From Candidatus Nanoarchaeia archaeon (lineage in GTDB: Archaea; Nanobdellota; Nanobdellia; Woesearchaeales; JANQNC01): DNA of 32,000 bases. The notes under the pieces are model-generated. The model was not told the origin of the DNA. It did not search any database and saw nothing but the letters and a program-made list of their open reading frames with translations. Each line of letters begins with the position of its first letter. Positions within the stretch are counted from its first letter, which is position 1. The stretch lies in contig JANQNC010000001.1 of assembly GCA_028279745.1 (NCBI GenBank), forward strand, positions 1,230,001-1,262,000, written 5' to 3'. Shown here in pieces: positions 3,401-21,657 of this stretch. Both the position numbers and the translations under genes were made by a program.

Positions 3401-3405
3401 ATAGC

Positions 3406-3615: not shown

Positions 3616-3799
3616 CTTTTATTCTGATCAGTTCTTCTTTGTCAAGGTAGATGTCAATCTTTTTCCAGTTTAGTTTATTTTCATGCTGTTTTTCATCAGC
3701 ATGAGTGATCTCTGCAGATACCTTAACAGTTTCAGAGCCTTCAACTTTCTTGATCTTTGCCAAAACAAACTTTTCTTTTTCGTCTATATGGATTTCCAT
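3608..3799 (-). CDS. hypothetical protein (63 aa from ATG)
   Basis: The track start at 3814 is TTG. An ATG at 3799 lies 1 nt after the TGA of the upstream gene (TGAgATG). No family recognised. Confidence 0.45.
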   Translation of the reverse strand: MEIHIDEKEKFVLAKIKKVEGSETVKVSAEITHADEKQHENKLNWKKIDIYLDKEELIRIKDE

Positions 3800-3800
3800 C

Positions 3801-4472: not shown

Positions 4473-4520
4473 TTTTTAATCCCCCATAACTATTATTTTG
4501 AGTTAGAAATGTATAATTTG

Positions 4521-4528
4521 TATATAAA
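4521..4528 (-). promoter_or_regulatory. TATA box for the 4472->3406 operon
   Basis: Minus-strand TTTATATA, 48 nt upstream of the ATG at 4472. The short leader carries GGGGGA. Confidence 0.5.
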
Positions 4529-4561
4529 CGTTAAGAGTTTGTTTTTAAAGAGGCCCGAGTA

Positions 4562-5194
4562 TCATATTGAGTACGTAGCGTGGGTTTTAGCAGTCTCAAT
4601 AAAAGATTTCATCTTATCATGAGATTTTTCCCCTTTGTGCTTTTCAACACCTGAGCTTACATCAACACCGTAAGGTTTTACAGAAATGATCGCTTCAGCA
4701 ACATTATTGGGGTTTAATCCACCGGCTAAAAAGATATTCTTACTGTACTCTTTAGCTTTCTTTGCCAAATCCCAATCGAAAGTCTTGCCAGTGCCTCCCA
4801 TCTTGCCTTCAACATGAGCATCTAAAACAAAAGCATCAACTGAACTATAATTTGGTATTACAGAAAGGCTTTGTTCATCCTTAACTCGGATAGCTTTCCA
4901 AACTTCCAAATGTGAAAAGTTGTTGCAGTATTCAGGAGATTCATTACCGTGGAATTGAAGAACGTCTAACCCTGCCATTTCCGAGATTGTTCTGACTATG
5001 CTAACATCTTCATTTACGAATAAACCAACCTTTTTCGGTCTTCTTACATTATGGCTTATTCCATTTGCCATAGAAGGAGTTATGAATCTAGGACTCCTAT
5101 TGTAAAATACAAAACCAAGATAATCTGCACCTAATTTAGCCGCATCTTGTCCATCTTTAATGTTTGTGATGCCGCATACTTTTACTTGAGTCAT
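4562..5194 (-). CDS. trpF: phosphoribosylanthranilate isomerase
   Basis: From MTQVKVCGITN: ..DAAKLGADYLGFVF...SPRFI.., LQFHGNE, DAFVLDA...GGTGKTFDW, FLAGGLNPNNV, GVDVSSGVE. The start is trimmed from the track value (5302) to the ATG at 5194. That ATG lies 22 nt downstream of a TATA box (5217-5224), and the family begins there. Confidence 0.85.
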   Translation of the reverse strand: MTQVKVCGITNIKDGQDAAKLGADYLGFVFYNRSPRFITPSMANGISHNVRRPKKVGLFVNEDVSIVRTISEMAGLDVLQFHGNESPEYCNNFSHLEVWKAIRVKDEQSLSVIPNYSSVDAFVLDAHVEGKMGGTGKTFDWDLAKKAKEYSKNIFLAGGLNPNNVAEAIISVKPYGVDVSSGVEKHKGEKSHDKMKSFIETAKTHATYSI

Positions 5195-5216
5195 ATAATT
5201 AGGAATAAACATGTTG

Positions 5217-5224
5217 TATATAAG
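5217..5224 (-). promoter_or_regulatory. TATA box for trpF
   Basis: Minus-strand CTTATATA, 22 nt upstream of the ATG at 5194. Confidence 0.55.
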
Positions 5225-5238
5225 TCTTGTTTGAAAAC

Positions 5239-5247
5239 TTTTAAATA
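5239..5247 (+). promoter_or_regulatory. TATA-like box for the 5271 gene
   Basis: TTTTAAATA, 23 nt upstream of the ATG at 5271. Confidence 0.45.
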
Positions 5248-5270
5248 CTTCTTTATAACTGTTGAGGTAG

Positions 5271-5567
5271 ATGTTACAAAATATAAAAGAGTTATTGTAC
5301 ACTTACTTTCCTAGTTTAAAACCTAAAACGAAAGTAAAACCGAAACATCAAGAGATATATTCAAAACTAGAATCATTTGTGTGGCACCCACCTTTAGAAG
5401 AGAATAGTATTGTTAAGTATCTTAGGAACAAAGGGTTTGTGAAGCAGAGTGCTGTTGCGGTGGGAGCAAGTCATAACACATTTCAATATTTCACGTTGAG
5501 TGATAAAGGAAGAGATATGAGAAATTATCTGCAAAGGCTTTATGGTGGATTGAATCCTACGGGTTAA
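5271..5567 (+). CDS. small protein (98 aa), possibly winged-helix DNA-binding
   Basis: The ATG lies 23 nt downstream of TTTTAAATA (5239-5247), divergent from trpF. The C-terminal half IVKYLRNKGFVKQS...YFTLSDKGRDM resembles a recognition helix plus wing. The match is weak. Confidence 0.4.
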   Translation: MLQNIKELLYTYFPSLKPKTKVKPKHQEIYSKLESFVWHPPLEENSIVKYLRNKGFVKQSAVAVGASHNTFQYFTLSDKGRDMRNYLQRLYGGLNPTG

Positions 5568-5568
5568 C

Positions 5569-5577
5569 TTTTATATA
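5569..5577 (+). promoter_or_regulatory. TATA box for the membrane protein gene
   Basis: TTTTATATA, 22 nt upstream of the ATG at 5600. Confidence 0.55.
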
Positions 5578-5599
5578 TTAGATATCATTCCCTATCCTC

Positions 5600-6022
5600 A
5601 TGAATAAGGTCATTAAAAGGTTGATATTGGGTGTTTTAGTACTTTATGTAATCTTGATAAGTATACTGGGTGTTGATTCATCAAAAACATTCTTAGAAAA
5701 CTTTTTGTTTGTTATCAGCTTAATACTGATAGTGGGAATTTTTGTCTGGATAGCATCAATAATAATCAATGTTGTAGATAAAATCAGAGAAAAACATCCT
5801 GAACTTTACAAAAAGATAGGAAGGCCTCACCCACTTGCATTAAATCCTGCAAGAGCTTTTTCAATGTGGGTTCTTGGCTTAAGGTTGATTTTTGAGCCTG
5901 ATTATTTCCCAAAAGATCTGCAGAAATCATTTAAGACATATAGAGTTATGCTTATTGTTTCTCATCTAGTGTGGATTGTATCAATAATGCTATTGGTTCT
6001 AGCAACGGTAATCTTAAACTAA
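5600..6022 (+). CDS. integral membrane protein (140 aa, about 4 TM segments)
   Basis: Hydrophobic stretches LILGVLVLYVILISILGV, FLFVISLILIVGIFVWIASIIINV, MWVLGLRLIF and VMLIVSHLVWIVSIMLLVLATVIL. TATA box at 5569-5577, 22 nt before the ATG. Confidence 0.6.
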   Translation: MNKVIKRLILGVLVLYVILISILGVDSSKTFLENFLFVISLILIVGIFVWIASIIINVVDKIREKHPELYKKIGRPHPLALNPARAFSMWVLGLRLIFEPDYFPKDLQKSFKTYRVMLIVSHLVWIVSIMLLVLATVILN

Positions 6023-6471
6023 AGAGAAACAAAAGTCTTGATGGCTTTGATTATCTCTTCATCGTTTTTGTAAGGCATTGTGAGAATCCCATTTATCTCT
6101 TGTTGGCTTGCTTCTGCTAAAGTGTACAAGAAAGGATTTGTAACTTTTATACTCTCTTTAAGCAAGTTTGAATATCTTTCACTAAACGCTTTAGAATCAT
6201 TAACGAAAACAGTTAACTTATCCAGTTCAGGAAACTGTTCACTTTCTGCAACAGAAAGGATTTCTTCAATATAAAAATCGTTGTTTATTGTTTTAAGGGT
6301 GTTTTTTCTGTAGATAGAAACTATTTCACCCCTTTCAGCGCCAGCGTCATAATCAATCTTGAAAGCCTCATTTTCTCCCTCATATCTTCTTGGACTTTGA
6401 ACTGGAGGAACTTCTTTAAGGAAAATTCCTGTAAACTCTGCAGCTTGAAATGCTAGTTTTGTTAGGTTCAT
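6019..6471 (-). CDS. hypothetical protein (150 aa)
   Basis: ATGA-type 4-nt overlap with the upstream gene. It is the last gene of the 8287->6019 operon. No family recognised. Confidence 0.55.
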   Translation of the reverse strand: MNLTKLAFQAAEFTGIFLKEVPPVQSPRRYEGENEAFKIDYDAGAERGEIVSIYRKNTLKTINNDFYIEEILSVAESEQFPELDKLTVFVNDSKAFSERYSNLLKESIKVTNPFLYTLAEASQQEINGILTMPYKNDEEIIKAIKTFVSL

Positions 6472-7235
6472 CTTCTCGTTAATTCTTGATAGATATCGCT
6501 TATTGTAAGTGGGTTTACCACCCAGTTTCTTAGGTTTATTTTCTTTTCTAGTTTTCCGTCTGAGTGTTGTACGTATCCTAAAGGTTTGAACCTTGGATCA
6601 TTTTTTGATGTTAATGAGTTATCGTTCTCAAGTATCGCTTCTTTTATTTCCCACTGTGGATCAAGTTGTTCTATGTTTATCAGATAAGACATAGGGTTCA
6701 TTGTTCTATCTGATCCATCAATCAAGTTATTTGCAGTTTCGTAGTTGCTCCATGAATCTCCTTGTTTTACCTGTAACCAGGCATGCGGTCCTTTATTTTT
6801 ACCATCATCTTTAATTCCGTAAGCAACTCTTACATTTTTTAATAGATCTGGTCGGTTTTCTTTTTCTGCTATGTGCCTAAAGTTAGTAAATGTGTAAATC
6901 GAAAAGAATAAGCAGTCAGCTTCTCCTTCTTTTGCCAGATTAGCTTTACGTTGAGTACTAAATGGAATCTCTTTCACTTCTAAAAACTTAGAAGTTATGG
7001 CGTGGGCGGTTTTTAGGTAAGTTAATGCAAGATCCTTTTCTTTTGTGTCTTTGAAGTCTAGTTGCCCCAATATTTTGTCGGTGTTTGTTGTCTTTACTAT
7101 CTCTTCTTTTTCAGTATTTACTGTTTGAATCAACTTGTTAGTCGCAAGGTAAAGCAGGGGAGTTGGAGAATAATTTAGAATAAAACCTAAACCTAAAATT
7201 CCTATTCCAATTTTTATCTTATTTTTTAATTTCAT
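6468..7235 (-). CDS. membrane-anchored transglutaminase-like (papain-fold) protein
   Basis: N-terminal anchor KIKIGIGILGLGFILNY. Core-like pattern EADCLFFSIYTF...GPHAWLQVKQGDSWSNYETA (Cys ... HAW.xV ... acidic). SD AGGTGA. 4-nt overlap with the methyltransferase gene. Confidence 0.6.
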   Translation of the reverse strand: MKLKNKIKIGIGILGLGFILNYSPTPLLYLATNKLIQTVNTEKEEIVKTTNTDKILGQLDFKDTKEKDLALTYLKTAHAITSKFLEVKEIPFSTQRKANLAKEGEADCLFFSIYTFTNFRHIAEKENRPDLLKNVRVAYGIKDDGKNKGPHAWLQVKQGDSWSNYETANNLIDGSDRTMNPMSYLINIEQLDPQWEIKEAILENDNSLTSKNDPRFKPLGYVQHSDGKLEKKINLRNWVVNPLTISDIYQELTRR

Positions 7236-7972
7236 TTCTTCACCTTTGCTGTCAGTAAATTATATCTGTAAGGTACTGTAATTTTATCTGGTTGAGTGTC
7301 TAACAGATTGTTTAACTTAGTCATGAAGTTATCTCTATACTCTTCAGGCATGTTAATAACCCAAGACATAGTAGAAACAAGATTAGCATAATCCTCTTTA
7401 CTGAATTCTAATTCAGAACGGTAAACTTTTTTATCTACTTTATTGAATTGGTCACTGTTTTCGATATCATCTTGGATAAAACCTAATGATCTTTTTTTGC
7501 TGAAGTCAGGACAGTTTCTGAAAAACAATTTTTTAACATTACTCAAAAGCTCAGTCTTTTCATACTCTTGAGCTTTCCAAAGAACAGCAAGATAGCCATC
7601 ATTTTTTAACAATTTGTTTGCTTTTTTGTATGCTACTTTGGGATCAACCCAGTGCCAAGCCTGAGCAGAAGTTATAACATCAAAACTATTTTCTGAAAGA
7701 AGAGTATCTTCAAAAGAACTCTTTATGTAAGCAACATTGTATAAATGGGACGTGTTTTGTTTTGCTATGTCGATCAAATCTTGACTTATATCTAAGCCTA
7801 TGATGTCGCATCCTTTTTCAGCAAGCGCTTTTGTTGCTTTGCCTGTGCCGCAACCGACTTCTAAAAAAGTAGTTCCAAGCTTTGCTACATCTTCAATGAC
7901 TTCATTAACATAGCCAGTCCTAGCGGAATCGTAAAGTTTTCCAATAGTCCCGAATGTTCTTTTTAGGTCCAT
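7232..7972 (-). CDS. class I SAM-dependent methyltransferase
   Basis: Motif I FLEVGCGTGKATKALAEKGCDIIGLDIS. Also FDVITSAQAWHWV and LLKNDGYLAVLW, as in the Methyltransf_11/25 families. Confidence 0.85.
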   Translation of the reverse strand: MDLKRTFGTIGKLYDSARTGYVNEVIEDVAKLGTTFLEVGCGTGKATKALAEKGCDIIGLDISQDLIDIAKQNTSHLYNVAYIKSSFEDTLLSENSFDVITSAQAWHWVDPKVAYKKANKLLKNDGYLAVLWKAQEYEKTELLSNVKKLFFRNCPDFSKKRSLGFIQDDIENSDQFNKVDKKVYRSELEFSKEDYANLVSTMSWVINMPEEYRDNFMTKLNNLLDTQPDKITVPYRYNLLTAKVKK

Positions 7973-7975
7973 TAT

Positions 7976-8287
7976 CTACCATCCGCCGTCGATTTCAGCA
8001 CCCAAAATTTTTATTTTTTCAATTCTTTTAGGTTTATCTTTTGAAAATACTGTGCCAGAGTTTGCTGTGCCATAAATTGTACCAACTAAAGAGCCAAGTC
8101 CATCAAGATTTTCCTTCAAATCGATATTTGCTATAGTTTCTATTGTCTTAATCACAGAGTTACTAAGATAAGGGATGTGTTCAATAACTTCGCCTGTAAA
8201 TTTACCTAAGTAATGACCTGCAACTGCACCTACTAGGGTCATGCCAGCAGTTAATGCTAAATTTTTTGCTTTTGTTTTATAGTTCAT
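7976..8287 (-). CDS. small Gly-rich membrane-associated protein (103 aa)
   Basis: One hydrophobic, glycine-zipper-like segment LALTAGMTLVGAVAGHYLG. Strong SD GGAGGT 5 nt upstream. First gene of the operon, with a TATA box at 8327-8334. Confidence 0.55.
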   Translation of the reverse strand: MNYKTKAKNLALTAGMTLVGAVAGHYLGKFTGEVIEHIPYLSNSVIKTIETIANIDLKENLDGLGSLVGTIYGTANSGTVFSKDKPKRIEKIKILGAEIDGGW

Positions 8288-8326
8288 TTTAACCTCCTTT
8301 TTTTTTTAATGGGTAATGGGTGCAAG

Positions 8327-8334
8327 TATATAAA
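8327..8334 (-). promoter_or_regulatory. TATA box for the 8287->6019 operon
   Basis: Minus-strand TTTATATA, 39 nt upstream of the ATG at 8287. The leader contains an A10 run and GGAGGT. Confidence 0.55.
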
Positions 8335-8380
8335 TCTTTGCATTATTTACCCCTATTAAGTGACAACAAACAGCTTAGAA

Positions 8381-8421
8381 TGGTCAAATTTAATGGTTTG
8401 AGGTGGTCGAATTTGGGGTTT
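8381..8421. repeat. two imperfect ~19-bp direct repeats upstream of the 8287 operon promoter
   Basis: tggtcaaatttaatggttt (8381-8399) and tggtcgaatttggggttt (8404-8421), starts 23 bp apart. On the minus strand they lie about 50-90 nt upstream of the TATA box at 8327-8334. Confidence 0.5.
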
Positions 8422-9010
8422 ACGGGGTGTCTAGACGCCCTTTGATGAGTTTCATAGAACTGTCCCACATGTGTTGGGTGTATGGGCAACAGAAGGGTCT
8501 GTTGGTTAATTTCTCATCTTTTGACCAAAAGTCGTAAAAGAATTTAGGATTCATGCCCATGGAATCTGCTGCAGCTTTGAATGTGTCAATGCTTGTGCTA
8601 ACCCAAAGAAAATCTAGGTCATTGAAGACTGCCATCTCCTTACATTCTTTGAAAGGTGTATTGTCTCCTAGTAACCAGTTGTCATGTACTGCAATATAAT
8701 TGACTATCTGTTTAGATTTTTCTTTGTCATAGTTAACTTTTTTTAAGATATCTTTAGCAATGTATGAACCTTCCCGCATATGAAACACTTTTATGTCTTT
8801 ACCTTTGATGTGAGGATTCTTTTCTTTAACTTTGGAGTAACCAACATCGTGAAGAATAACTATGGGCAAAAGAAGTTTTTTATCAAGAGATTCTATATCT
8901 GCGATTTTGTTGGATTCTTTTTGCATCCACTCAATATGGGGGATGTCAAATATTCTTCCTTTTTCATAATATGGCTTTGCCAGCTCCCATATCTTGTCGT
9001 AGGTTGTCAT
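8420..9010 (-). CDS. HD-domain metal-dependent phosphohydrolase
   Basis: PHIEW...LLLPIVILHDVGY...IAVHDNW gives the H...HD...H(D) pattern of the HD superfamily. Confidence 0.8.
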   Translation of the reverse strand: MTTYDKIWELAKPYYEKGRIFDIPHIEWMQKESNKIADIESLDKKLLLPIVILHDVGYSKVKEKNPHIKGKDIKVFHMREGSYIAKDILKKVNYDKEKSKQIVNYIAVHDNWLLGDNTPFKECKEMAVFNDLDFLWVSTSIDTFKAAADSMGMNPKFFYDFWSKDEKLTNRPFCCPYTQHMWDSSMKLIKGRLDTP

Positions 9011-9557
9011 TTTCAGTTTTTTTTATTATTATGCTTAGGTTATCATATGTTTCGGAGTGAAGGTGTTTAACCATCCCTTTAAATTCTGGTGAGTCAATAG
9101 TTCTAAGGTATAACTTAGCTCGTTCATAATCTCTTCTTAGTCTTGATTCTATAGGACCAAAGTCTTTCTCGAACTGACTTGAATAATGATGATAAGGTGT
9201 GTCCTCGTCATTAAAAGCAGAACCTCTCTTTCCAGGACTCCATAGGTCAATCTTGTGAACATTTGGGTAGTTGAATATCGTGTCATATGCAGCTTTTCTT
9301 AAGAAAGATTCAACAAGGTTGTCTAGTTCAAACTTTGCGCCAATGAAAAGATACACATCTTCATCTTTAGGAAACACAACAATGTCTCCTTGTGGAAGAG
9401 TGCCGCCTTCCCTGAAGCTTAAACCATTTCCTTTATCAAACTCTCTGTACTGTGGTTCTCTGATAACGATATCATAACCTAAAGAAGGTTTGGTTATGAA
9501 ACTATTGAAATCCTTAATTGCTTCTAAAAATTGTTCATCTGTTATGAAGTCTGTCAT
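8964..9557 (-). CDS. hypothetical protein (197 aa)
   Basis: Long ORF in the operon. Its 3' end overlaps the HD gene start by 47 nt in another frame. No family recognised. Confidence 0.55.
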   Translation of the reverse strand: MTDFITDEQFLEAIKDFNSFITKPSLGYDIVIREPQYREFDKGNGLSFREGGTLPQGDIVVFPKDEDVYLFIGAKFELDNLVESFLRKAAYDTIFNYPNVHKIDLWSPGKRGSAFNDEDTPYHHYSSQFEKDFGPIESRLRRDYERAKLYLRTIDSPEFKGMVKHLHSETYDNLSIIIKKTENDNLRQDMGAGKAIL

Positions 9558-9561
9558 TTTT

Positions 9562-10002
9562 TTAAATCTTCCTTATGCTTTCTGCAAAGTCAAGCAGTAC
9601 TTTTTCATAAGTCTTGTCTGGATCGTATCTGTTGTTGAATGTAAGGTATCCTTCTGCATCGCTGTTGATAATTATTGTTAAGTCAATCGCATACTCAGGC
9701 ACATTCTTTTTTAGAATTTCTTCAATCTGTTCAGGTAAATTTGATTCGCCCATGCTGTTGTGTTCATTTCTTCCATTAGGTATTAGATGTTGAGAAAGAT
9801 CTGTCGCTTCGTGGATTGTAACTCCTAAGTCTGTAGGGATATTAGATTGTTTGGACTTGTCATAAAAATCAATAGAAGCATAGATCAATGCACTTGAAGA
9901 AACATCTTTAGATCTGCCATCATCAGAAAATATTTTAGTAACTGGAAAGACTTCTGATCTTATGATTCTTCTATCGAATTGGTTGACTAGTTCGTGTTTC
10001 AT
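9562..10002 (-). CDS. hypothetical protein (146 aa from ATG)
   Basis: The start is trimmed to the ATG at 10002, 1 nt after the TAA of the upstream gene. The longer track start would overlap that gene by 38 nt. Confidence 0.55.
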   Translation of the reverse strand: MKHELVNQFDRRIIRSEVFPVTKIFSDDGRSKDVSSSALIYASIDFYDKSKQSNIPTDLGVTIHEATDLSQHLIPNGRNEHNSMGESNLPEQIEEILKKNVPEYAIDLTIIINSDAEGYLTFNNRYDPDKTYEKVLLDFAESIRKI

Positions 10003-10003: not shown

Positions 10004-10456
10004 TTAATGCGATGCGTGATAAAACAACTGGATCTGTTCAACTATTCCTGAGTTGGGTTGTACAGAAATATTTTTTATTGTAAGTTCTAGTGGTTCTTCT
10101 TTGGTGCTTGTCAGATCTTTACATTCATAAAGATGTAATGCAAGGCTTGCATTAAATGATTTTGTGTTGAAGGGTAATCTTTTATTGAGATATTTTGCAA
10201 ACTTAAACTGAGGGGCTTCAGGGTTAAGTGTTTCTTTTTCAAATAAGGCTCTTAAGCTTTCATCTTTAAGTTTTGAAGCATTAACTTTACCGCTTTTTGC
10301 AATCTGATCATAGAAGTCATGAACATTGCCTGTTAAAGGTAGAACGGGTGGTTCAGTTATTAACAGATTATGGTTGTGGGGATATACAGAATAAGTGGCA
10401 AGCTTATACTTTTGATTTTCGATACTGAATTTCAGACTGTGTAATATTGTAGCCAT
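10004..10456 (-). CDS. hypothetical protein (150 aa), first gene of a leaderless operon
   Basis: The ATG lies 25 nt downstream of a TATA box (10482-10489) with no SD. No family recognised. Confidence 0.55.
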   Translation of the reverse strand: MATILHSLKFSIENQKYKLATYSVYPHNHNLLITEPPVLPLTGNVHDFYDQIAKSGKVNASKLKDESLRALFEKETLNPEAPQFKFAKYLNKRLPFNTKSFNASLALHLYECKDLTSTKEEPLELTIKNISVQPNSGIVEQIQLFYHASH

Positions 10457-10481: not shown

Positions 10482-10489
10482 TATATAAA
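10482..10489 (-). promoter_or_regulatory. TATA box for the 10456->8420 operon
   Basis: Minus-strand TTTATATA, 25 nt upstream of the ATG at 10456. Confidence 0.55.
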
Positions 10490-10521
10490 TGTTTCTGTGG
10501 TTTTACTACTTCGGAGTGGGT

Positions 10522-11769: not shown

Positions 11770-11807
11770 TTTATTCCTCCTCTATTTTTGATAGAATTGC
11801 CATTTTA

Positions 11808-11815
11808 TATATAAA
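11808..11815 (-). promoter_or_regulatory. TATA box for the 11769->10522 operon
   Basis: Minus-strand TTTATATA, 38 nt upstream of the ATG at 11769. The leader carries GGAGGA. Confidence 0.5.
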
Positions 11816-11825: not shown

Positions 11826-12101
11826 TCATTTAAAACCTATTCTTTTTAAAAAATAATCTTCAGATGATAAAGCTTCAAGTTTAAGTTTTTGAGTCTTAGC
11901 TAATTTTTTTACTTCTTTAGCTATGTTGGTTTTCTTCTGGTTTTTGCTTATTTCAAAAGATGCAATCTTATCAGTAAGCTTATCAAACTTGTAACTGTCA
12001 TCCACTTCTTTTATTTGAGCCAGGTAAGGTTTGATAACTTTAGACCTAACTTGATTATGTTTGTATTGCTCGGTGCAGTATAGGATCTTTAGAGTTGTCA
12101 T
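11826..12101 (-). CDS. small cytoplasmic protein (91 aa), paralog of 17615-17908 (C-terminal SEDYFLK motif)
   Basis: ATGA overlap with the upstream gene. Shares I.ILY....H, KPYL, FEISK and KLKLEALSSEDYFLKRI with the 97-aa protein at 17615-17908. Confidence 0.6.
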   Translation of the reverse strand: MTTLKILYCTEQYKHNQVRSKVIKPYLAQIKEVDDSYKFDKLTDKIASFEISKNQKKTNIAKEVKKLAKTQKLKLEALSSEDYFLKRIGFK

Positions 12102-13519
12102 TTTTTCCTCTTGTATCTGTCTTCATCAGTTACTTTTTTCTTTTTACTCTCAATCATTCTTCCGTAGAGAGTCAAACCTATGTAAGGTTCATAGTTTTTA
12201 TTCTCATCAATCTTAACTCCTGCTTTAAGGATTCCTGTGCGTTTGCTAGCTGTTATGTTTGGGATGTATTCAATTACTTTTCCTCTTGACATAACTACAT
12301 CAAGACCTGCTCCGATATGCTGATTTCTGAATATGGATGTGTGAGGAAATATTTCTGCACCAACTAAAGCATCATCTCCCTTTTTGAAAGCATGAATAGA
12401 ATAAGCTTGGTTTCCTGAAGTGTATCTTAACATTGCACCAGGCAATACAAAGTTTCTTATCGCAAAAAACAATCTTAGATCATCATTAAGCTTGAAACCA
12501 TTAGTTGCAGTAAAAGCTGCTTTGAACTCTTTATTATCAGAACCTAGTTTTAACCTTAAGCCACTATACTTAAGTGCTAGGTGAGTGAAGTTTCTATCAT
12601 AGTATTCTCCAAATCCTGTTTCGTATCCTAATCCGAGAGGGATTTTTACAAAAGGTATTCTTAATTTTTTAGTATTAGGGTATACTGCTCCTCCCATAAT
12701 GAAACCTGTTTTATCCGGAATGATGTTGACATCCAGAGAAAGCTTTTCCCATGATATATCAAATAGATAACAAGCCATATCATCTTGAGATCCAAATAAA
12801 AGATTTATTGAAGTATTGTTTTTCTTCTTCTTTGGAGGTTTTGCGAACTTTGCAGATTTTGGTTTATCGTTACGATGGGTAAAAATAAGAAGTTCATAAG
12901 AAAGCATTACGTGGTTGAATTTAGAGTATGTGAGCCAGTCAACATTAAGTTTTCGATCTATAATTCCAAACGAATATCCAATCTTAAATCGGTGTTCAAG
13001 TCTAACTGTCGGCTTATTAAATTCATCATGTTTTTTTGAACGATCTGTTTCAGCCACTAAATATACAGAAAGAAGTTTAGCGTCTTCTTTATTGTTTTTT
13101 TTGATTGTTTTTGATTCTAATTTGTCTCCTGTGTTTAGATCAAAACTTTCTATTTTTTGAGAGTGAGTTAGATCAATATGGCTTATAACGCCTTCAATCC
13201 CAAACCCTTTTTTTGAAAATTTGTTATTCTTTCCGCTGATAAAAGGGAACCAATCAACATTTAAACCTACCATGTAGTCTTTTCCATCTATTCCATAAGA
13301 GACTTTGCTGATCAAGTCAGAACCTGCTTTTGCACCTATGCCTATCTTACCCATGTCAAGATTAAGAGATGAGGTTATAGGCATAAAATTAGCTTTTGTT
13401 TCACCATTGTGGTAAACACCTACACCTAAACCAAAATCCTTCTTTTGCTCTTTTGCAAAAAGACTGCCAACAAGAAGTCCTAAACTTATTGCAGCAGCTT
13501 TGATTAAACTCATTTTCAT
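12098..13519 (-). CDS. secreted all-beta protein (473 aa) with outer-membrane beta-barrel-like sequence texture
   Basis: Signal peptide MKMSLIKAAAISLGLLVGSLFA. There are many 8-12-residue strands of alternating polarity with Gly/Asn/Asp turns and aromatic residues: FGLGVGVYHNGE, KIGIGAKAGSD, YMVGLNVDWFPF, HLALKYSGLRLKLGSD, FKAAFTATNGFKL, LRLFFAIRNF, AYSIHAFKKGD, HIGAGLDVVMS, YIGLTLYGRM. A Lys-rich linker sits mid-protein. The start is set at the ATG at 13519, which forms an ATGA overlap with the upstream stop. Confidence 0.6.
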   Translation of the reverse strand: MKMSLIKAAAISLGLLVGSLFAKEQKKDFGLGVGVYHNGETKANFMPITSSLNLDMGKIGIGAKAGSDLISKVSYGIDGKDYMVGLNVDWFPFISGKNNKFSKKGFGIEGVISHIDLTHSQKIESFDLNTGDKLESKTIKKNNKEDAKLLSVYLVAETDRSKKHDEFNKPTVRLEHRFKIGYSFGIIDRKLNVDWLTYSKFNHVMLSYELLIFTHRNDKPKSAKFAKPPKKKKNNTSINLLFGSQDDMACYLFDISWEKLSLDVNIIPDKTGFIMGGAVYPNTKKLRIPFVKIPLGLGYETGFGEYYDRNFTHLALKYSGLRLKLGSDNKEFKAAFTATNGFKLNDDLRLFFAIRNFVLPGAMLRYTSGNQAYSIHAFKKGDDALVGAEIFPHTSIFRNQHIGAGLDVVMSRGKVIEYIPNITASKRTGILKAGVKIDENKNYEPYIGLTLYGRMIESKKKKVTDEDRYKRKK

Positions 13520-13836
13520 AACCAATCTTTGACTTGCATATACTGCTTAAGAATTTCCAACACTTGATCTCTTCTGTAAAGCTCAGGTGTTCTGAAACGA
13601 TCAGAGGTGTTTGGAGGTATAGTGTTAATCTCAATCATGTATTGGTTTTTTACTATCCTGTAATCTAACGATAGAGTGGGAGCATTGTCTTTAGCTTTTC
13701 TCTCAAATCTAGCGTGTTTTTTGTGTTGTTGGTATAGTGGTTTATCTGTTTTGTTCTCAAAACCTAATTCTTTCAGTCCTAAGTGTAGAAGATTTCTATC
13801 TTCCAACCTTTTTGCTTTTTGTATTATTTTTTTCAT
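13516..13836 (-). CDS. small protein (106 aa) whose C-terminal half resembles the C-terminal Mg-ATP strand region of ATP-grasp enzymes
   Basis: LSLDYRIVKNQYMIEINTIPPNTSDRFRTPEL compared, from memory, with Ddl/RimK-type RIDV....G.FYLLE.NT.PGMT..S..P. The protein is far too short for a complete ATP-grasp fold. SD-like AGGGGA upstream. Confidence 0.4.
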   Translation of the reverse strand: MKKIIQKAKRLEDRNLLHLGLKELGFENKTDKPLYQQHKKHARFERKAKDNAPTLSLDYRIVKNQYMIEINTIPPNTSDRFRTPELYRRDQVLEILKQYMQVKDWL

Positions 13837-13851
13837 TTTTTAGTGTCCCCT

Positions 13852-14481
13852 TTAGTTTAGTAGAGAGTCCAGGTTTTGTGTTCTATCCGTAAGGTTTGCT
13901 TTATATGCTAATTTTAACAGTCCTGGTGCTTTTTTTCTAATGTCTTGTTTTATTGCTGCGTATTTGTTTTCTGCAAACTCCCAGACATTTCTAGATTCTT
14001 CGCTTTCCCTTCTGTTGCGGTAAATAAAATTGTTTAACCGTACGCAATCTACGGTGTTTCTCCAGACTTCGCATTTAATTTTTGTTCCTTCTTTAGTTTC
14101 TATGTTCATATCCATCCATCTATGGTGGTTTAAGTATACTATGTCTCCTGAAATTCTTTTGAAATCAAAATTGTCTCTTTCAACAGCTAAAGTATATTTT
14201 GTTCCGTCATCTAACTCTCCTGAGATCTGTAGGTCTATTTCATATTCCCCTTTTGCATTTGCTCGATCTTTTCTCTCAACAACCTTTATGTCAAGTTCAT
14301 TAGTGTTGTTGGCAAATTGTTCAATTTCTGTTATGTATTCATTTACTGGAATGTTTTTAGTTGTGATGGGTAAACTAAATGCAAGCTCTTCTAAAAATGG
14401 TTTGGGATTACAGTTTTTAACTCCGAATGATGCAGCTGCTGCTAACCAAACTGCAATTAGTAGGGATTTTTTTGCATTCAT
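13852..14481 (-). CDS. secreted protein, conserved-signal-peptide family member 3 (209 aa)
   Basis: The start is trimmed to MNAKKSLLIAVWLAAAASFGVKNC (ATG at 14481, 2 nt after the upstream stop, SD GAGG). Shares EYI....F...EL.IK with the neighbouring paralog. Confidence 0.7.
   Translation of the reverse strand: MNAKKSLLIAVWLAAAASFGVKNCNPKPFLEELAFSLPITTKNIPVNEYITEIEQFANNTNELDIKVVERKDRANAKGEYEIDLQISGELDDGTKYTLAVERDNFDFKRISGDIVYLNHHRWMDMNIETKEGTKIKCEVWRNTVDCVRLNNFIYRNRRESEESRNVWEFAENKYAAIKQDIRKKAPGLLKLAYKANLTDRTQNLDSLLN
14416..14481 (-). repeat. conserved signal-peptide cassette, copy 3
   Basis: tttaactccgaatgatgcagctgctgctaaccaaactgcaattagtagggattttttt... The ~50-nt core differs from the copies at 15088-15155 and 15644-15709 at only a few positions, whereas the rest of the genes is diverged. 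Confidence 0.85.
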
Positions 14482-14483
14482 TT

Positions 14484-15155
14484 TTAGTGCCTCTGTATTC
14501 CTGTGATATTTGCGAAAACCATCTTTTCTATGTCGGGATATTGTACCCCTAACCATTTCCTAAATCTGCTCAGTTCTCTACCTCCAATATCTATAATTTC
14601 TTTATGTTCTTCAGTTTTGTAGTCTATTGGGAGTTTGTATTCAATGTTGTTTATCACTGCATCTGTGACTGCGTAATCAGAGCGGTGCTGAAGGTAAGAA
14701 TAGCTTGTGTTACGAGATAAGACGTCTAAACAAAGCGTATGACTTTTGTGGTATAAAGAGTAATCTAGTAGAAGATTGTACTCAGTTTTCAGTAGATTGA
14801 TATTGTTAATTCTCACTTTAGACCTCCCAAAGGTGCCAGGTTTGTATTCTGTTTTAATATTTAGTTCTGGATATTGTGCTTTGAAACTATCAAAAGCAGA
14901 AATGTATTCAAGCAATCTAACATTTTTGTAATCCAGCTTTTTTAAGTTTACTTTAGGAAGTTTAGGTTTTTTCTTTGCTTTAGGAACTTCTTTAACTTTC
15001 TTTTCAAGCTTCTCTCTTCTTTCTAACTCTTCACTGAACGCTTCATGAAGAATCTTTTTTGTTTCATCAATGGGGGGTGCACATTGTTTAACTCCGAATG
15101 ATGCAGCTGCTGCTAGCCAGACTGCGATTAGTAGTGATTTTTTTGCTATGCTCAT
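14484..15155 (-). CDS. secreted protein, conserved-signal-peptide family member 2 (223 aa)
   Basis: MSIAKKSLLIAVWLAAAASFGVKQC. ATGA overlap with the upstream gene. GGAGG upstream. Confidence 0.7.
   Translation of the reverse strand: MSIAKKSLLIAVWLAAAASFGVKQCAPPIDETKKILHEAFSEELERREKLEKKVKEVPKAKKKPKLPKVNLKKLDYKNVRLLEYISAFDSFKAQYPELNIKTEYKPGTFGRSKVRINNINLLKTEYNLLLDYSLYHKSHTLCLDVLSRNTSYSYLQHRSDYAVTDAVINNIEYKLPIDYKTEEHKEIIDIGGRELSRFRKWLGVQYPDIEKMVFANITGIQRH
15088..15155 (-). repeat. conserved signal-peptide cassette, copy 2
   Basis: tttaactccgaatgatgcagctgctgctagccagactgcgattagtagtgattttttt... Confidence 0.85.
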
Positions 15156-15709
15156 TTTTTCAGGGCCTCCGCTTTTTTAACGTATGTATGTATCGAGTCT
15201 GCCTGTTTTCCTGCTACCCGTATCATAACTAATTTTGCATAGTTGTTTTCTTCTTTTGAGACTTGTTCTGTTAGGTACTCTGCCAGATTTATGTGCCACA
15301 TTGCGATATTGAGATAGTGGTTTATTTGTTGCTCTTTTGTAAAGTAGTCCTGTTTTATTTCAGGTCTAGTTTTTATGAATTTTTTTTCTGTCTTAATCGC
15401 TTCTCTTTCTATAAGCTCTTCTAAGTTCTTTTCGATAGCTTCATCTGTCTCTAACCTATGCAGTTTTTCAACAGCATTCAAAAAATTTTGTTGTATCTTA
15501 GGCAAATAATCATCTTTCTGAGTGTTATAATTTTTCTTTTGAGCTTTTTTTTTCTTTACTGCAAAAACTTTTTTTACTTTTTTCTCAAGTTCTTGTTCAA
15601 CTTCAGGAAGAGGTTTTAGAGTACTTGGATCTGTTTTACAATATTTAATCCCAAATGATGCAGCTGCAGCTAGCCAAACTGCGATTAGTAGGGATTTTTT
15701 GAAGTTCAT
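15152..15709 (-). CDS. secreted protein, conserved-signal-peptide family member 1 (185 aa, Lys/Glu-rich helical mature part)
   Basis: MNFKKSLLIAVWLAAAASFGIKYC. The mature part is predicted helical and charged. Confidence 0.7.
   Translation of the reverse strand: MNFKKSLLIAVWLAAAASFGIKYCKTDPSTLKPLPEVEQELEKKVKKVFAVKKKKAQKKNYNTQKDDYLPKIQQNFLNAVEKLHRLETDEAIEKNLEELIEREAIKTEKKFIKTRPEIKQDYFTKEQQINHYLNIAMWHINLAEYLTEQVSKEENNYAKLVMIRVAGKQADSIHTYVKKAEALKK
15644..15709 (-). repeat. conserved signal-peptide cassette, copy 1
   Basis: tttaatcccaaatgatgcagctgcagctagccaaactgcgattagtagggatttttt... Confidence 0.85.
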
Positions 15710-15717
15710 TTTTTTCG

Positions 15718-16125
15718 TTAAAGTCTCTTTTGATACAAAACTTCTATCTCGCTTGCATACTTATATCCGACTCTTACATCTGGCTCTGCAAATGAAACTG
15801 CCCGTTCACTAAGTGGATATTTAGGGTATTTAGACATACTTATCCTGGTGTCCTTATCAATAAGAAGATCCAGGGTTTCTTTGGTTGTTGCCCCGTCATC
15901 AAGTATATTCAAAGCTAAAATTCGGCCACAATCTGTTTTAACTTTTATTATATATTTTGAGTCTTTGGTATACTTTTCCTCAATTACTTTTCCTTGAATG
16001 CTGTTTTTTGTTTTGTATCCAGGAGTAGACATCTTATGAGTTAGTTTAGCAGTTAAGCCTGCAAGCACTATAGCAGTTGCAATTATGCATCTGTTAAGAT
16101 ATTTGTCAAACCTTTTTTTATTCAT
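15718..16125 (-). CDS. N-terminally anchored small beta-rich protein (135 aa)
   Basis: Signal anchor CIIATAIVLAGLTAKL after a basic N-terminus. SD GGAGA upstream. Confidence 0.6.
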   Translation of the reverse strand: MNKKRFDKYLNRCIIATAIVLAGLTAKLTHKMSTPGYKTKNSIQGKVIEEKYTKDSKYIIKVKTDCGRILALNILDDGATTKETLDLLIDKDTRISMSKYPKYPLSERAVSFAEPDVRVGYKYASEIEVLYQKRL

Positions 16126-16161
16126 TTTTATCTCCTATTGTGTTTTTCATTTTAGTTAACC

Positions 16162-16455
16162 TCATGAATATTTTTCTGCTAGTTCTTCTAAGTTAGTGCT
16201 TAGTTTGTTCATTGCAGTCATTACTGGTTCACCGAAAGATTCTCCGCCATAACTTTTGATTTCTTTAGCCATCCTTTTGTAAAAAACATCTTTTAAGAGA
16301 CCTGCTTGTGGTGCTTTTCTTTTCAGATAGTTCATTATCTTTTGGGGTGCTTGTTTAATTCTGTCATTTGATGTTGTATCTTCATTTACCCAAATCATTG
16401 TGTTTCTTATGTATTCAGAACTTTGTTCGCAGATGCTTTTTAGGTTATTTTTCAT
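16162..16455 (-). CDS. hypothetical cytoplasmic helical protein (97 aa from ATG)
   Basis: The track start (16473) is TTG. The ATG at 16455 lies 4 nt after the upstream stop, with GGTGAGAG upstream. Confidence 0.5.
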   Translation of the reverse strand: MKNNLKSICEQSSEYIRNTMIWVNEDTTSNDRIKQAPQKIMNYLKRKAPQAGLLKDVFYKRMAKEIKSYGGESFGEPVMTAMNKLSTNLEELAEKYS

Positions 16456-16459
16456 TGTC

Positions 16460-16828
16460 TTATCTCTCACCAAAGTCTTGTAATTTTCTGTTTAATCTGT
16501 ATAATTTTACACCTTTCTTGTGATCTTCAACTTCTTCCCACTTGTATTCTCCCCAGTTAAAACTAACTAATCCATCCATGTCTTTCATCGCTTCGTCTCT
16601 ATTTTGGTATGCTGCATTTGCTACTAGAACTTCAGCGATCTGCTCTTTTGTGTATAGAGGTGTGTTTCTAGAACCGAACATTAGTTTGATCTCTGATAAT
16701 GCACTTGTTAACATGCTTTGTTTGCCTATTAACATTTTTTCTAGCTGTCTAAGTGTAGCACATTCTTTGTTCTGTGCAGGAACTAGTGTGTTTGTTGTGC
16801 TTAGTATTGCTTTCATGTAGTTTTCCAT
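16460..16828 (-). CDS. hypothetical cytoplasmic protein (122 aa from ATG)
   Basis: The ATG at 16828 (MENYMKAIL) is preceded by AAGGAGGA at optimal spacing. The longer track start lacks an SD. Confidence 0.55.
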   Translation of the reverse strand: MENYMKAILSTTNTLVPAQNKECATLRQLEKMLIGKQSMLTSALSEIKLMFGSRNTPLYTKEQIAEVLVANAAYQNRDEAMKDMDGLVSFNWGEYKWEEVEDHKKGVKLYRLNRKLQDFGER

Positions 16829-16841
16829 TTTATTTTCCTCC

Positions 16842-17231
16842 TTAATTAAATTCAAAAGGGGTTGTAGATAGTACTGATTCTAGGTTGTATATTTTTACTG
16901 TTTCTGATTTGTTTCCTTCTCTATCTACTGCATATACCTCAAAAGTATAAGGCATGTTGTCTCTTACTTCTCTTGGAACTACAAAAGAAGCGCTGTGTTT
17001 TAGTTTGCATCTGTTTACTAGTTTTACTTTTTTGTCTTCACAAACTGCATAAGCAGTCATTCCAACTGCGTTGTTGTCCTTAAAATCTATGTATTTACCG
17101 GATGCATCCTCTAAGACAGGTATTTTTTTATGCTGCTCTGATTCTACTTTTGTTTTTTCAGTTGTTGAACATCCAGTAAACCCAAAATATAATGTTGCGA
17201 TTGTTGCTATAGTTGCTAGTACTTTTTTCAT
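16842..17231 (-). CDS. lipobox-type putative lipoprotein (129 aa), tandem paralog B
   Basis: MKKVLATIATIATLYFGFTGC (lipobox-like FTGC). GGAGGA SD. The first 44 coding nt plus the SD are identical to the upstream paralog. Confidence 0.7.
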   Translation of the reverse strand: MKKVLATIATIATLYFGFTGCSTTEKTKVESEQHKKIPVLEDASGKYIDFKDNNAVGMTAYAVCEDKKVKLVNRCKLKHSASFVVPREVRDNMPYTFEVYAVDREGNKSETVKIYNLESVLSTTPFEFN

Positions 17232-17245
17232 TTTTTATTCCTCCT
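17188..17245 (-). repeat. 58-bp perfect direct repeat, copy 1 (SD, ATG and signal-peptide codons of lipoprotein B)
   Basis: tataatgttgcgattgttgctatagttgctagtacttttttcattttttattcctcct is identical to 17575-17632. Confidence 0.95.
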
Positions 17246-17618
17246 TAAACTTTTGATAACTGTCTACAAATTCTCCAGAAATCTGAGTTAGTTTCCCCCT
17301 TATGTCTATGTCAACCTCACTCTTGAATATGGGTTTTTTGGTTATTACTCTGACACTATCTCCTAATTTGAACGGATCTGCTTTTCCGGAACAGACGTAA
17401 ACGTTACCTTCTTTTGTTCTAATTTCGTATGCGTTGATTTCGCTCATTATGCTTCCATTACCTGTGCCCCATAATGATGCGTTTTTATTGTGTATGCTGT
17501 ATTTGTTAGTGACTCTTCCAACAAGGGGATTTTCAGAATGTGTTGCTTTGTTTTCAGAACATCCTAATCCGAAGTATAATGTTGCGATTGTTGCTATAGT
17601 TGCTAGTACTTTTTTCAT
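17235..17618 (-). CDS. lipobox-type putative lipoprotein (127 aa), tandem paralog A
   Basis: MKKVLATIATIATLYFGLGC (lipobox-like GLGC). GGAGGA SD. ATGA overlap with the upstream gene. Confidence 0.7.
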   Translation of the reverse strand: MKKVLATIATIATLYFGLGCSENKATHSENPLVGRVTNKYSIHNKNASLWGTGNGSIMSEINAYEIRTKEGNVYVCSGKADPFKLGDSVRVITKKPIFKSEVDIDIRGKLTQISGEFVDSYQKFKEE

Positions 17619-17632
17619 TTTTTATTCCTCCT
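17575..17632 (-). repeat. 58-bp perfect direct repeat, copy 2 (SD, ATG and signal-peptide codons of lipoprotein A)
   Basis: Identical to 17188-17245. The copies are 387 bp apart. Confidence 0.95.
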
Positions 17633-17908
17633 CAAGCTTTTCAAGAAATAATCTTCACTTGTTAGTTTTTCAAGAGTGATTCCTTTTTTTTCAGCAAAAG
17701 ATTTGATTCTTATTTGGTTTTTATAGGGGGTTACATAGCTTTCAATCTTGAATACTGAAACTTTTTCAGTTACACTTTCATGGCGAACTGCTTTTCTAAG
17801 GTTTGCAGATTCACCTAGAACAGTCATTAAATAAGGTTCAACAAGCTTGTCCAGTATTGGGTTAAAGTCATGTTTTTTGCTGTCGTAAAATATGGCAATT
17901 CCTACCAT
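17615..17908 (-). CDS. small cytoplasmic protein (97 aa), SEDYFLK family, first gene of operon A
   Basis: ATG at 17908 preceded by a G7 SD-like tract. Paralog of 11826-12101 (EPYL, FKIES, ITLEKLTSEDYFLKSL). Confidence 0.6.
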   Translation of the reverse strand: MVGIAIFYDSKKHDFNPILDKLVEPYLMTVLGESANLRKAVRHESVTEKVSVFKIESYVTPYKNQIRIKSFAEKKGITLEKLTSEDYFLKSLRRNKK

Positions 17909-17942: not shown

Positions 17943-17963
17943 GGTAGAAGTAATTAGATGTAG

Positions 17964-18005
17964 TATTTATATGATTTCCATATAAATTATAGTGAACATT
18001 ATAAA
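17964..18005 (-). promoter_or_regulatory. conserved promoter/operator module, copy A (heads operon A, 17908->11826)
   Basis: The plus strand reads tatttatatgatttccatataaattatagtgaacattataaa. On the minus strand this is TTTATAATGTTCACTATAATTTATATGGAAATCATATAAATA. 39/42 identical to copy B. Confidence 0.75.
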
Positions 18006-18050
18006 AAATGCCCGAAGTAGAAGGGTGCAATGGTGATTTGCTTCTTCGGG
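18001..18050 (-). terminator. hairpin plus T-run terminator-like structure after operon B
   Basis: cccgaag(ta)gaag ... cttcttcggg forms 11 bp with a 2-nt bulge at 18011-18050. On the minus strand it is followed by CATTTTTTAT. It lies 27 nt after the stop of 18077-18796. Confidence 0.55.
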
Positions 18051-20683: not shown

Positions 20684-21586
20684 TCATTTCCTCACAGTCA
20701 GTCTTTTGTATTCTGCTTTTTGGCCGTTGTTAACTCCGATTATGTAAGTTCCAGCTCCAACAGGTAGACCGTTCTTGTTTGTTCCATCCCAAACTTTCTG
20801 TCCTTTCAGATCTCTAATCATCTTTCCATGGATGTCGAATACTTTAGCATCGATCCCGTTGTGATTAATGTTGATTTGAGAACCTGATTTTGCAGGGTTT
20901 GGACTAACATTCATACCTTTGTAAATTCTTCTTGGAATGTTTTCAATATTTGCTGGAGGCAGAACCGTTACTACCGTAGATTCGGTTGTGTTTTTGCCTT
21001 CATTATCTGTTATTGTTAATTTGGTTAAATAGGTTCCAGGTTCTGAGTATCTGAATGTTACGGTGTGGTCACCTGCCATTCCGGCGTCTATCTCTCCATC
21101 ATTATCGTGGTCCCATCTGTAGACTATGCTAGGATCAGATCCTGTTATGCTGAATTCTACATCTAAAGGTGCTTGACCTGTAGTCTCTGTTGATCCTACT
21201 ATTCCAGGCGTTCCTGCCTCTCCTTCTGCTTTTTGTGCTGCGATTACAACTGTTTCGCTTGTTTGTTTTCCTTCATTATCTGTAACTGTAACTGTAGCTA
21301 TGTATGCTCCTGGTTCTTCATATCTGTTTGATATTGTGTGGGGGCCGTTTGCGGTTGCATCCACGTTTCCATCTCCGTCAAAGTCCCATTCGTACTTTAC
21401 TATGTTGCCATCAACGTCAAGGCCTGTTGCGGTAAATAAGGTATTTAGCGGCGCAACGCCTGATTGGTTTATTGCGTTAACTGTAACGTATGGTGCTATA
21501 TTATCTGTAGAACTTGCTCTTGCTGCAGGTGTTAAACCTAACACTGCTGACAAAACAAGTGCTGTTAATGTTTTTGCTTTTTTCAT
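20684..21586 (-). CDS. secreted protein with two PKD domains and a T9SS-type/FlgD-Ig-like C-terminal domain
   Basis: Signal peptide MKKAKTLTALVLSAVLGLTPAARA. Two PKD-like repeats: GVAPLNTLFTATG...YEWDFDGDG...Y.EPGAYIATVTVTDNEG, and GQAPLDVEFSITG...YRWDHDNDG...YSEPGTYLTKLTITDNEG. The C-terminus VSPNPAKSGSQINI...AKVFDIHGKMIRDL...WDGTNKNGLPVGAGTYIIGV resembles the Por/T9SS sorting and FlgD-Ig domains. G+C is visibly higher than in the neighbours. Confidence 0.8.
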   Translation of the reverse strand: MKKAKTLTALVLSAVLGLTPAARASSTDNIAPYVTVNAINQSGVAPLNTLFTATGLDVDGNIVKYEWDFDGDGNVDATANGPHTISNRYEEPGAYIATVTVTDNEGKQTSETVVIAAQKAEGEAGTPGIVGSTETTGQAPLDVEFSITGSDPSIVYRWDHDNDGEIDAGMAGDHTVTFRYSEPGTYLTKLTITDNEGKNTTESTVVTVLPPANIENIPRRIYKGMNVSPNPAKSGSQININHNGIDAKVFDIHGKMIRDLKGQKVWDGTNKNGLPVGAGTYIIGVNNGQKAEYKRLTVRK

Positions 21587-21633: not shown

Positions 21634-21657
21634 CTGAGTGGTGAATATACTATCTAC

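Follow-up and report, generated by a model that had tools for sequence, protein, structure and literature searches.

An orphan exported protein of amphipathic β-strands in a probable DPANN-type archaeon: surface protein or membrane barrel?

Can an archaeon encode a protein built like those of the bacterial outer membrane? The question is raised by one gene, here called the target, in a stretch of 32,000 nucleotides (hereafter the window) from Candidatus Nanoarchaeia archaeon (assembly GCA_028279745.1, contig JANQNC010000001.1, positions 1,230,001 to 1,262,000). An earlier note described its product as a secreted protein resembling an outer-membrane β-barrel in an apparently archaeal genome, and offered three explanations: a pore-former aimed at another cell's membrane, a soluble β-rich surface protein, or horizontally acquired bacterial material. 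Our analysis supports an exported, essentially all-β protein of two parts, and confirms that its open reading frame (ORF) is a real, native gene. Among the explanations we tentatively favour a lineage-specific, exported, two-domain all-β surface or secreted protein of a DPANN-type archaeon.

A two-part exported product with no relatives

The gene and the segments of its product are as follows.

12098..13519, minus strand: target coding sequence, ATG start, 473 amino acids (aa) plus stop
13454..13519, minus strand: Sec-type signal peptide, residues 1-22, from hydropathy, with the cleavage site inferred from the -3/-1 rule
12866..13453, minus strand: N-terminal all-β half, residues 23-218, β-dominant in 62% of windows, 2.40 long alternating runs/100 aa
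12815..12865, minus strand: Lys/Pro-rich linker KPKSAKFAKPPKKKKNN, residues 219-235, read from the sequence
12152..12814, minus strand: C-terminal all-β half, residues 236-456, β-dominant in 64% of windows, 3.27 runs/100 aa
12101..12151, minus strand: charged, Lys-rich C-terminal tail ESKKKKVTDEDRYKRKK, residues 457-473, no terminal aromatic residue

A TTG two codons upstream of the ATG is an alternative start and would extend the product to 475 aa. An ORF of that length (475 codons) is expected by chance only about 3e-12 times in a window of 34% G+C (GC). Codon usage is typical of the window, the relative synonymous codon usage correlating at r = 0.90 with that of the housekeeping genes (GC 0.339; GC at third codon positions, GC3, 0.255). 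The upstream gene's TGA and the target's ATG overlap (ATGA), as do the target's stop codon and the start of the downstream gene; such overlaps indicate translational coupling at both ends. The identical protein is on record twice, at NCBI (contig of 1,301,350 bp) and in the Logan assembly of run SRR20820740, where it lies on a separate contig of 28.6 kb. The DNA encoding the linker has no long homopolymer, so that the two halves were not joined by slippage or a fusion artefact.

Taking a Kyte-Doolittle 19-residue mean above 1.0 as the criterion, residues 1-22 are the only hydrophobic segment of helix length in the target, with a maximum of 1.85 at position 3. The n-region MKMSLIK and h-region AAAISLGLLVGSLF are followed by a junction of Ala and Lys (LFA/K) of the Sec/signal peptidase I type, and a lipobox Cys is absent. 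The mature chain of 451 residues is strongly basic, with an isoelectric point (pI) of 9.6. Its content of Lys (12.5%) is within the range of this genome, while Gly (8.9%) is among the highest in the window; Phe, Tyr and Trp together make up 11.4%, and there is a single Cys. The N-terminal half holds an alternating run of eight positions, VRLEHRFKIGYSFGI (residues 172-186), and the last predicted strand of the C-terminal half is PYIGLTLYGRM. YIGLTLYGRM is succeeded by IESKKKKVTDEDRYKRKK; the chain thus continues for 17 residues, most of them charged, beyond the last strand, and ends in Lys. Turns between strands are tight, of G/N/D type, and almost all short, rather than alternately short and long. 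No internal duplication was found in the target, its two halves have no detectable similarity to each other, and there are no paralogs of it among the proteins of the window.

The description in the earlier note thus stands at this level: the Sec-type signal peptide, a product made almost entirely of short amphipathic strands, two halves about a Lys-rich linker, and a Lys-rich tail in place of a terminal aromatic residue were all recovered, and every peptide that it quoted, AYSIHAFKKGD, HIGAGLDVVMS and YIGLTLYGRM among them, is present. The strand, which the note had left unstated, is the minus strand.

Database searches returned no relative. Neither the whole target nor either half matches a Pfam family at E<=10, the families of outer-membrane proteins (OMPs; clan MBB) and of β-pore-forming toxins (aerolysin/ETX-MTX2, leukocidin) included, and NCBIfam and PDB sequences gave the whole target only chance-level matches to unrelated proteins at the same threshold. 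A C-terminal sorting domain (Por_Secre_tail or TIGR04183) was not matched in Pfam or NCBIfam, and PHROGs had nothing for the target or nine nearby proteins. No homolog emerged from a word-indexed search of 5.8 billion proteins, from exhaustive phmmer against 1.84 billion representative proteins, from tblastn against 50,697 phage records, or from scans of GTDB genomes (185,579 species genomes), JGI metagenomes and IMG/VR. Equally, phmmer against six-frame ORFs of 80 loci anchored on aroD, in related and unrelated genomes, found no match to the target; the only window proteins with relatives there were TrpF, AroE and AroD. The relatedness to OMPs and the phylogenetic distribution that the earlier note proposed to check therefore both came back empty, which leaves the target as an exported orphan, of a kind that is common among the genes of DPANN archaea.

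The target's own 90%-identity cluster is represented by an unrelated 37-aa aquaporin-like JGI fragment. Because of this clustering artefact the target does not appear as a self-match in searches of representatives, from which it is hidden.

Strand texture and predicted fold

Strand texture was calibrated with 12 E. coli K-12 OMPs, 18 soluble β-rich exported proteins (among them fimbrial subunits, chaperones, NanM, MalM and CusF) and about 25 other proteins. Three measures were taken: (a) the period-2 against the helical hydrophobic moment in windows of 11 residues; (b) coverage by amphipathic windows of 10 residues; and (c) runs of alternation in which one face is hydrophobic and uncharged, counted from five positions (about nine residues) or from six (strands of at least 11 residues) upwards.

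By the first measure, the period-2 moment exceeds the helical in 62% of target windows, and does so in both halves. The fraction of such β-dominant windows is 0.48-0.78 in E. coli OMPs and 0.52-0.71 in fimbrial subunits, with all α/β controls at 0.51 or below. The second measure did not separate E. coli OMPs from fimbrial subunits and was discarded as a test. By the third, the target has 12 runs with faces of at least five positions, whereas shuffled sequences of the same composition have 6.7 +/- 2.0 (P about 0.012). The corresponding density of 2.67/100 aa is the highest among the non-helical proteins of the window; OMPs range from 1.3 to 3.4 and most soluble β proteins from 0 to 1.5, with FimH (2.54) and YbcL (2.52) as soluble outliers, and a neighbouring protein with PKD domains scores 1.09. 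Most hydrophobic faces in the target comprise five positions, or about nine residues. With faces of at least six positions its density is 0.67/100 aa, compared with 1.2-2.7 in small OMPs and at most 0.72 in soluble β proteins.

The amphipathic texture is thus beyond chance and compatible with a barrel, though its strands tend to be short. It is, however, non-diagnostic, since period-2 amphipathicity is equally strong in soluble fimbrial subunits, so that OMPs and soluble β proteins are not told apart. The texture of a porin or OMP seen in the earlier note is therefore real, and in the OMP range for nine-residue faces, but it is not specific to OMPs: soluble fimbrial subunits reach the same scores, faces of at least 11-residue strands fall in the range of soluble β proteins, and both a family match and a β-signal are lacking. 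More generally, when judged from sequence alone, an OMP-like look of alternating hydrophobicity is, even in E. coli, no means of telling OMPs apart from β proteins of fimbrial or Ig-like type.

Structure prediction, one of the checks proposed in the earlier note, gave no usable model. Single-sequence AlphaFold2 gave a mean confidence (pLDDT) of 30.4 for the full-length target and 35.3 for the C-terminal half, both low-confidence models consisting of hairpin meanders with hairpins of 8-10 residues. Foldseek with the model of the C-terminal half (pLDDT 35.3) found nothing in the PDB at E<=0.001 and no query-normalised TM-score above 0.27; what it listed were insignificant, generic Ig-like matches.

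An archaeal genome and an operon of exported proteins

Is the host an archaeon? The promoters of the window provide one answer. The exact octamer TTTATATA occurs 10 times, always between genes, where 3.2 occurrences are expected and none of 100 shuffles reaches 10.

261, 4521, 5570, 8327, 10482, 11804/11808, 27201, 27262 and 31870: TTTATATA sites, all intergenic

It lies 30-33 nt before the start codons of the genes starting at 293, 5600, 10456, 27178, 27292 and 31847, the spacing of an archaeal TATA box where the mRNA is leaderless. Before the genes starting at 4472, 8287 and 11769 the distance is 46-56 nt, and a purine-rich ribosome-binding motif of GGAGG type follows. Sigma-70-like promoter sites around the locus are at chance level (23 found, 23.0 expected). 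The site at 11804-11815 is palindromic. Together these positions provide a clean archaeal promoter map for an uncultured lineage.

AroD provides another answer. The window's AroD, on record from a contig of 1.30 Mb, has named relatives at 46-52% identity in Candidatus Woesearchaeota, Aenigmarchaeota and Nanoarchaeota, and its best matches in GTDB genomes are on low-GC contigs labelled Woesearchaeota (57, 53 and 52%) and in automatically labelled bins. The top GTDB match bears the label 'Pseudomonadota', which is probably wrong because that contig has the same GC as the window and a similar density of TTTATATA. The window further encodes a regulator of AbrB type and one of Lrp/AsnC type with two tandem modules. 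It therefore probably comes from a small-genome, Woesearchaeota-like archaeon of DPANN type, the lineage being approximate since it is drawn from one gene. The archaeal origin assumed in the earlier note is upheld by promoter architecture and AroD relatives alike, and the bacterial contig which it had named as a refutation is not what was found.

The target's operon and the elements related to it are listed next.

11826..17908, minus strand: 12-gene co-directional, tightly packed, operon-like unit, with the target as gene 11
17615-17908 and 11826-12101, minus strand: first and last operon genes, small basic paralogs with 26% identity over 92 residues
17235-17618 and 16842-17231, minus strand: genes for tandem lipobox proteins, encoding MKKVLATIATIATLYFG..GC
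15152-15709, 14484-15155 and 13852-14481, minus strand: genes for three proteins with a shared signal peptide, the peptides 79-92% identical to one another
27292-27918, plus strand: gene for a fourth protein of this kind, its signal peptide 67% identical to the operon copies
18005..18050, minus strand: hairpin with a 7-bp stem, CCCGAAG/CUUCGGG, followed by a U6 run; free energy (dG) -12.4 kcal/mol, z = -2.06
17958..18005, 21652-21699 and 25522-25569: three copies, in the same orientation, of a conserved 48-nt intergenic element
20684-21586, minus strand: gene for a protein with signal peptide, two PKD domains and a T9SS (type IX secretion system) type A sorting domain

The operon's products, several of which have signal peptides, are uncharacterised: Pfam gave no significant match among the eight operon proteins scanned and PHROGs none among six. 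The four shared signal peptides end in a conserved Cys, KKSLLIAVWLAAAASFG[VI]K[NQY]C, and precede mature parts that are dissimilar. The context of this Cys is not a canonical lipobox, and a scan of JGI metagenomes with the alignment and motif of the signal-peptide family gave no match. The two tandem lipobox genes are 93% identical over 76 nt covering their 5' ends and ribosome-binding sites, and 100% identical over the inner 47 nt; this near-identity points to a leader region that has recently undergone duplication or gene conversion. One further product is anchored at its N-terminus. The paralogous first and last proteins have no signal peptide but share a C-terminal motif, LExLxSEDYFLK. Ahead of the operon, the hairpin and U6 run likely mark the end of the upstream transcription unit.

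The 48-nt element comprises a palindromic TATA pair, TTTATATG-N5-CATATAAA, followed by TATAGTGAACNTTATA; its core motif has three matches where 0.18 are expected. One copy stands upstream of the target operon, a second between the divergent pair formed by the PKD/T9SS-domain gene and the AbrB-type regulator gene, and the third upstream of the cluster at 25504. This suggests co-regulation of several units encoding exported proteins, and the element may be a shared operator or a bidirectional promoter. The GTG 'start' of ORF 21686 falls inside the element, and the true start is for that reason probably the ATG at codon 20.

The T9SS type A sorting domain scores 36.4 bits with TIGR04183 (cut-off 23) and 29 bits with Pfam Por_Secre_tail (cut-off 27). 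In bacteria, the presence of such a domain implies that the cell has both an outer membrane and type IX secretion machinery. GC is higher in this gene (0.413) than in any other of the window, yet its GC3 and codon usage are native.

Several other features of the window may be recorded here. Tandem genes for secreted paralogs at 27936-29306 and 29303-30709 on the minus strand encode proteins of 456 and 468 aa, 30% identical over 438 residues and with no significant family match; together with a gene of the signal-peptide family, they sit between aroD and aroE. A 34-nt sequence that includes a TATA box is common to 10484-10517 and 30874-30907 (82% identity). It is promoter-proximal, lying upstream of the genes at 10004-10456 and 29303-30709, and makes a second family of related promoters. 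The Lrp/AsnC gene at 293-1237 on the plus strand encodes in one polypeptide two complete modules, each combining a ligand-binding domain with HTH_AsnC (about residues 3-45 and 169-210), and hence a covalently fused regulator dimer. Beyond window position 1, positions 1-9900 of the Logan contig encode IlvD, ketol-acid reductoisomerase, a CDP-alcohol phosphatidyltransferase and a PGP-phosphatase-like protein; with the trpF, aroD and aroE of the window, these represent more biosynthetic capacity than is found in many DPANN genomes.

Surface protein or barrel

What, then, is the target? The explanation that we favour, with the reserve already expressed, is a soluble surface protein. It would be exported through Sec and cleaved after LFA22, and each half would fold as a soluble domain of β-sandwich or jelly-roll type. 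Having no membrane anchor, the protein might be held through its cationic linker and tail on an acidic surface, either the S-layer or lipid head groups of its own cell or those of a host cell. There, together with other operon products, it could form part of the apparatus of cell envelope or host contact that is typical of episymbiotic DPANN archaea. How the domains fold, how the protein is retained at the surface and what it does there are all inferred in this scheme.

Besides the native gene, the archaeal genome, the signal peptide as sole hydrophobic segment and the all-β periodicity of both halves, the following speak for it: hydrophobic faces of at least six positions are as sparse as in soluble controls, and not as frequent as in small OMPs; the operon encodes exported, lipobox and membrane-anchored proteins; there is neither an OMP-family match nor a C-terminal β-signal; and the 48-nt element also precedes the gene of the PKD-domain surface protein, with which the target is possibly co-regulated. 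Soluble β-sandwich surface proteins, such as Ig-like fimbrial subunits, adhesins like FimH, PKD proteins and ConA-like or jelly-roll lectins, resemble the target in possessing a signal peptide, several all-β domains and flexible linkers. They show the same amphipathic-strand scores, consist mostly of short strands and turns, and are encoded among other exported proteins. The target differs from them in that no Pfam or PDB sequence match to such domains was found, its halves of about 200 residues exceed Ig or PKD modules in size, and its density of nine-residue faces is higher than that of the neighbouring PKD protein.

Four points weigh against a soluble surface protein. That same density is within the range of E. 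coli OMPs and above 16 of the 18 soluble β controls as well as the PKD neighbour; the AlphaFold2 models (pLDDT 30 and 35) are unusable, which makes the soluble fold a guess; retention at the surface through Lys-rich segments is pure conjecture; and, as the target has no homologs, neither conservation nor co-occurrence supports any particular function.

Lineage-specific proteins of the envelope and of host contact in DPANN archaea are a further point of comparison. The setting is similar, in that the organism is of DPANN type with a small genome, the target is exported and matches no family, and the surface proteins of this genome are poorly annotated. The target nevertheless has no link of sequence or structure to any described surface component, including the complex of Microcaldus variisymbioticus ARM-1 considered below.

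Alternatively, and in our view unlikely, the target could insert into a membrane as a β-barrel after Sec export, either as a monomer with at least 20 strands or as a pore of oligomeric kind. The membrane in question would be that of a host cell, where the barrel could serve as a channel for uptake of metabolites or lipids by the dependent DPANN cell, or else an outer layer of the archaeon's own envelope that has escaped recognition; anionic lipid head groups would be the docking sites of the Lys-rich linker and tail. We know of no outer membrane, and no Omp85 or β-barrel assembly machinery (BAM), in Woesearchaeota-like archaea, and this we count against a barrel; the part of the genome covered here was the window and about 14 kb of flanks, out of roughly 1.3 Mb.

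Several features are shared with bacterial OMP barrels (Pfam clan MBB: OmpA-like/OMP_b-brl, porins, OmpW, OmpX). Like them, the target has a Sec signal peptide with no hydrophobic helix after it, period-2 amphipathic strands, G/N/D turns, abundant Gly and aromatic residues and almost no Cys; its nine-residue faces exceed the number in shuffled sequences and fall within the range of E. coli OMPs in density. It contains OMP-like motifs (DFGLGVGVY, RFKIGYSFGI and HIGAGLDVV), and the hairpin meanders of its models, poor as these are, point the same way. In BAM-dependent OMPs, the last strand is at the C-terminus and ends in an aromatic residue, usually Phe. The target, unlike these, has no terminal aromatic residue or β-signal and carries its Lys-rich tail instead. 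It further departs from OMPs in the missing family match, in the scarcity of strands of at least 11 residues (their faces are as rare as in soluble β proteins), in turns that are short on both sides, in its basic pI and in a Lys/Pro linker of interdomain type, the last two being atypical of OMPs. The host, too, is an archaeon in which neither an outer membrane nor BAM is known. The texture measures, for their part, are compatible with soluble folds as well.

A narrower claim, a true archaeal membrane β-barrel, we regard as rather improbable, whether as a self-inserting or oligomeric pore in the host membrane or as a porin in some outer layer of the envelope as yet unrecognised. The second version would fit with the protein bearing a T9SS-type sorting domain, encoded 7 kb away behind the same 48-nt element. 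For the first, β-pore-forming toxins (aerolysin/ETX-MTX2, α-hemolysin/leukocidin) offer a precedent: they are secreted and β-rich, exported in water-soluble form, and make membrane barrels without BAM. Theirs is the only established route known to us by which an organism with no outer membrane could place a β-barrel in a target membrane. These toxins, however, contribute one amphipathic hairpin per subunit, whereas amphipathic strands span the whole chain of the target, which matches no toxin family and for which there is no evidence of oligomerisation. In the full-text literature we found no β-barrel membrane protein described as native to DPANN archaea, with the exception of a possible distal PopA relative in Altiarchaeales. 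A barrel-shaped envelope complex, its components unidentified, has been seen by cryo-tomography in another DPANN archaeon, M. variisymbioticus ARM-1 (PMC11329633), and lends the idea some encouragement.

Could an integrated virus or mobile element instead have the target as one of its structural proteins, for example a capsid-like protein of two jelly-rolls or an envelope protein, with the operon as the cargo of a selfish element? Its two β-rich halves of about 200 residues and its basic tails may recall double jelly-roll capsid proteins in size, and the operon strings together small co-directional genes, of which those scanned have no significant match in the databases. We consider this very unlikely. 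Phage and virus resources (PHROGs for the target and nine nearby proteins, the 50,697 phage records, IMG/VR) are silent, and the window has no virus hallmark, integrase, packaging ATPase, tRNA or flanking att-like repeat. In GC and codon usage the target cannot be told from the housekeeping genes, capsid proteins do not usually carry a cleavable signal peptide, and the 48-nt element is common to other chromosomal units. The provirus idea was dropped, the checks of PHROGs, IMG/VR and integrase or att having yielded no supporting feature.

Horizontal transfer of a bacterial OMP gene, or a mis-binned bacterial contig, has little left to recommend it and is disfavoured, scarcely plausible as it now seems. 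It might be suggested by the OMP-like strand texture, by the neighbouring gene's sorting domain, which is typical of Bacteroidota, and by bacterial labels on some AroD relatives. Against these stand the lack of any homolog, bacterial or other, in the 1.84 billion representatives, the 185,579 GTDB species genomes and the JGI metagenomes; the native codon usage; translational coupling in an operon behind an archaeal TATA-type promoter; sigma-70-like sites at chance level; and the probable mislabelling of the 'Pseudomonadota' AroD contig. Finally, a spurious or non-functional ORF is barely credible: having no homologs, the target offers no evidence of purifying selection, but its length, improbable by chance, its 4-bp operon-style overlaps at both ends and its non-random, protein-like periodicity all contradict the idea.

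The significance of the target depends on which account holds. As a soluble surface protein, it would join the lineage-specific envelope proteins of DPANN archaea, its main use being as a candidate in studies of host contact, and would illustrate how much of DPANN genomes resists annotation by any sequence method. Were it a true barrel, it would represent a family of β-barrel membrane proteins that arose independently of the bacterial Omp85/BAM world, the first such family native to archaea, and would be relevant to the ways in which episymbiotic archaea exploit their hosts and to whether β-barrels can evolve and assemble when Omp85 and BAM play no part.

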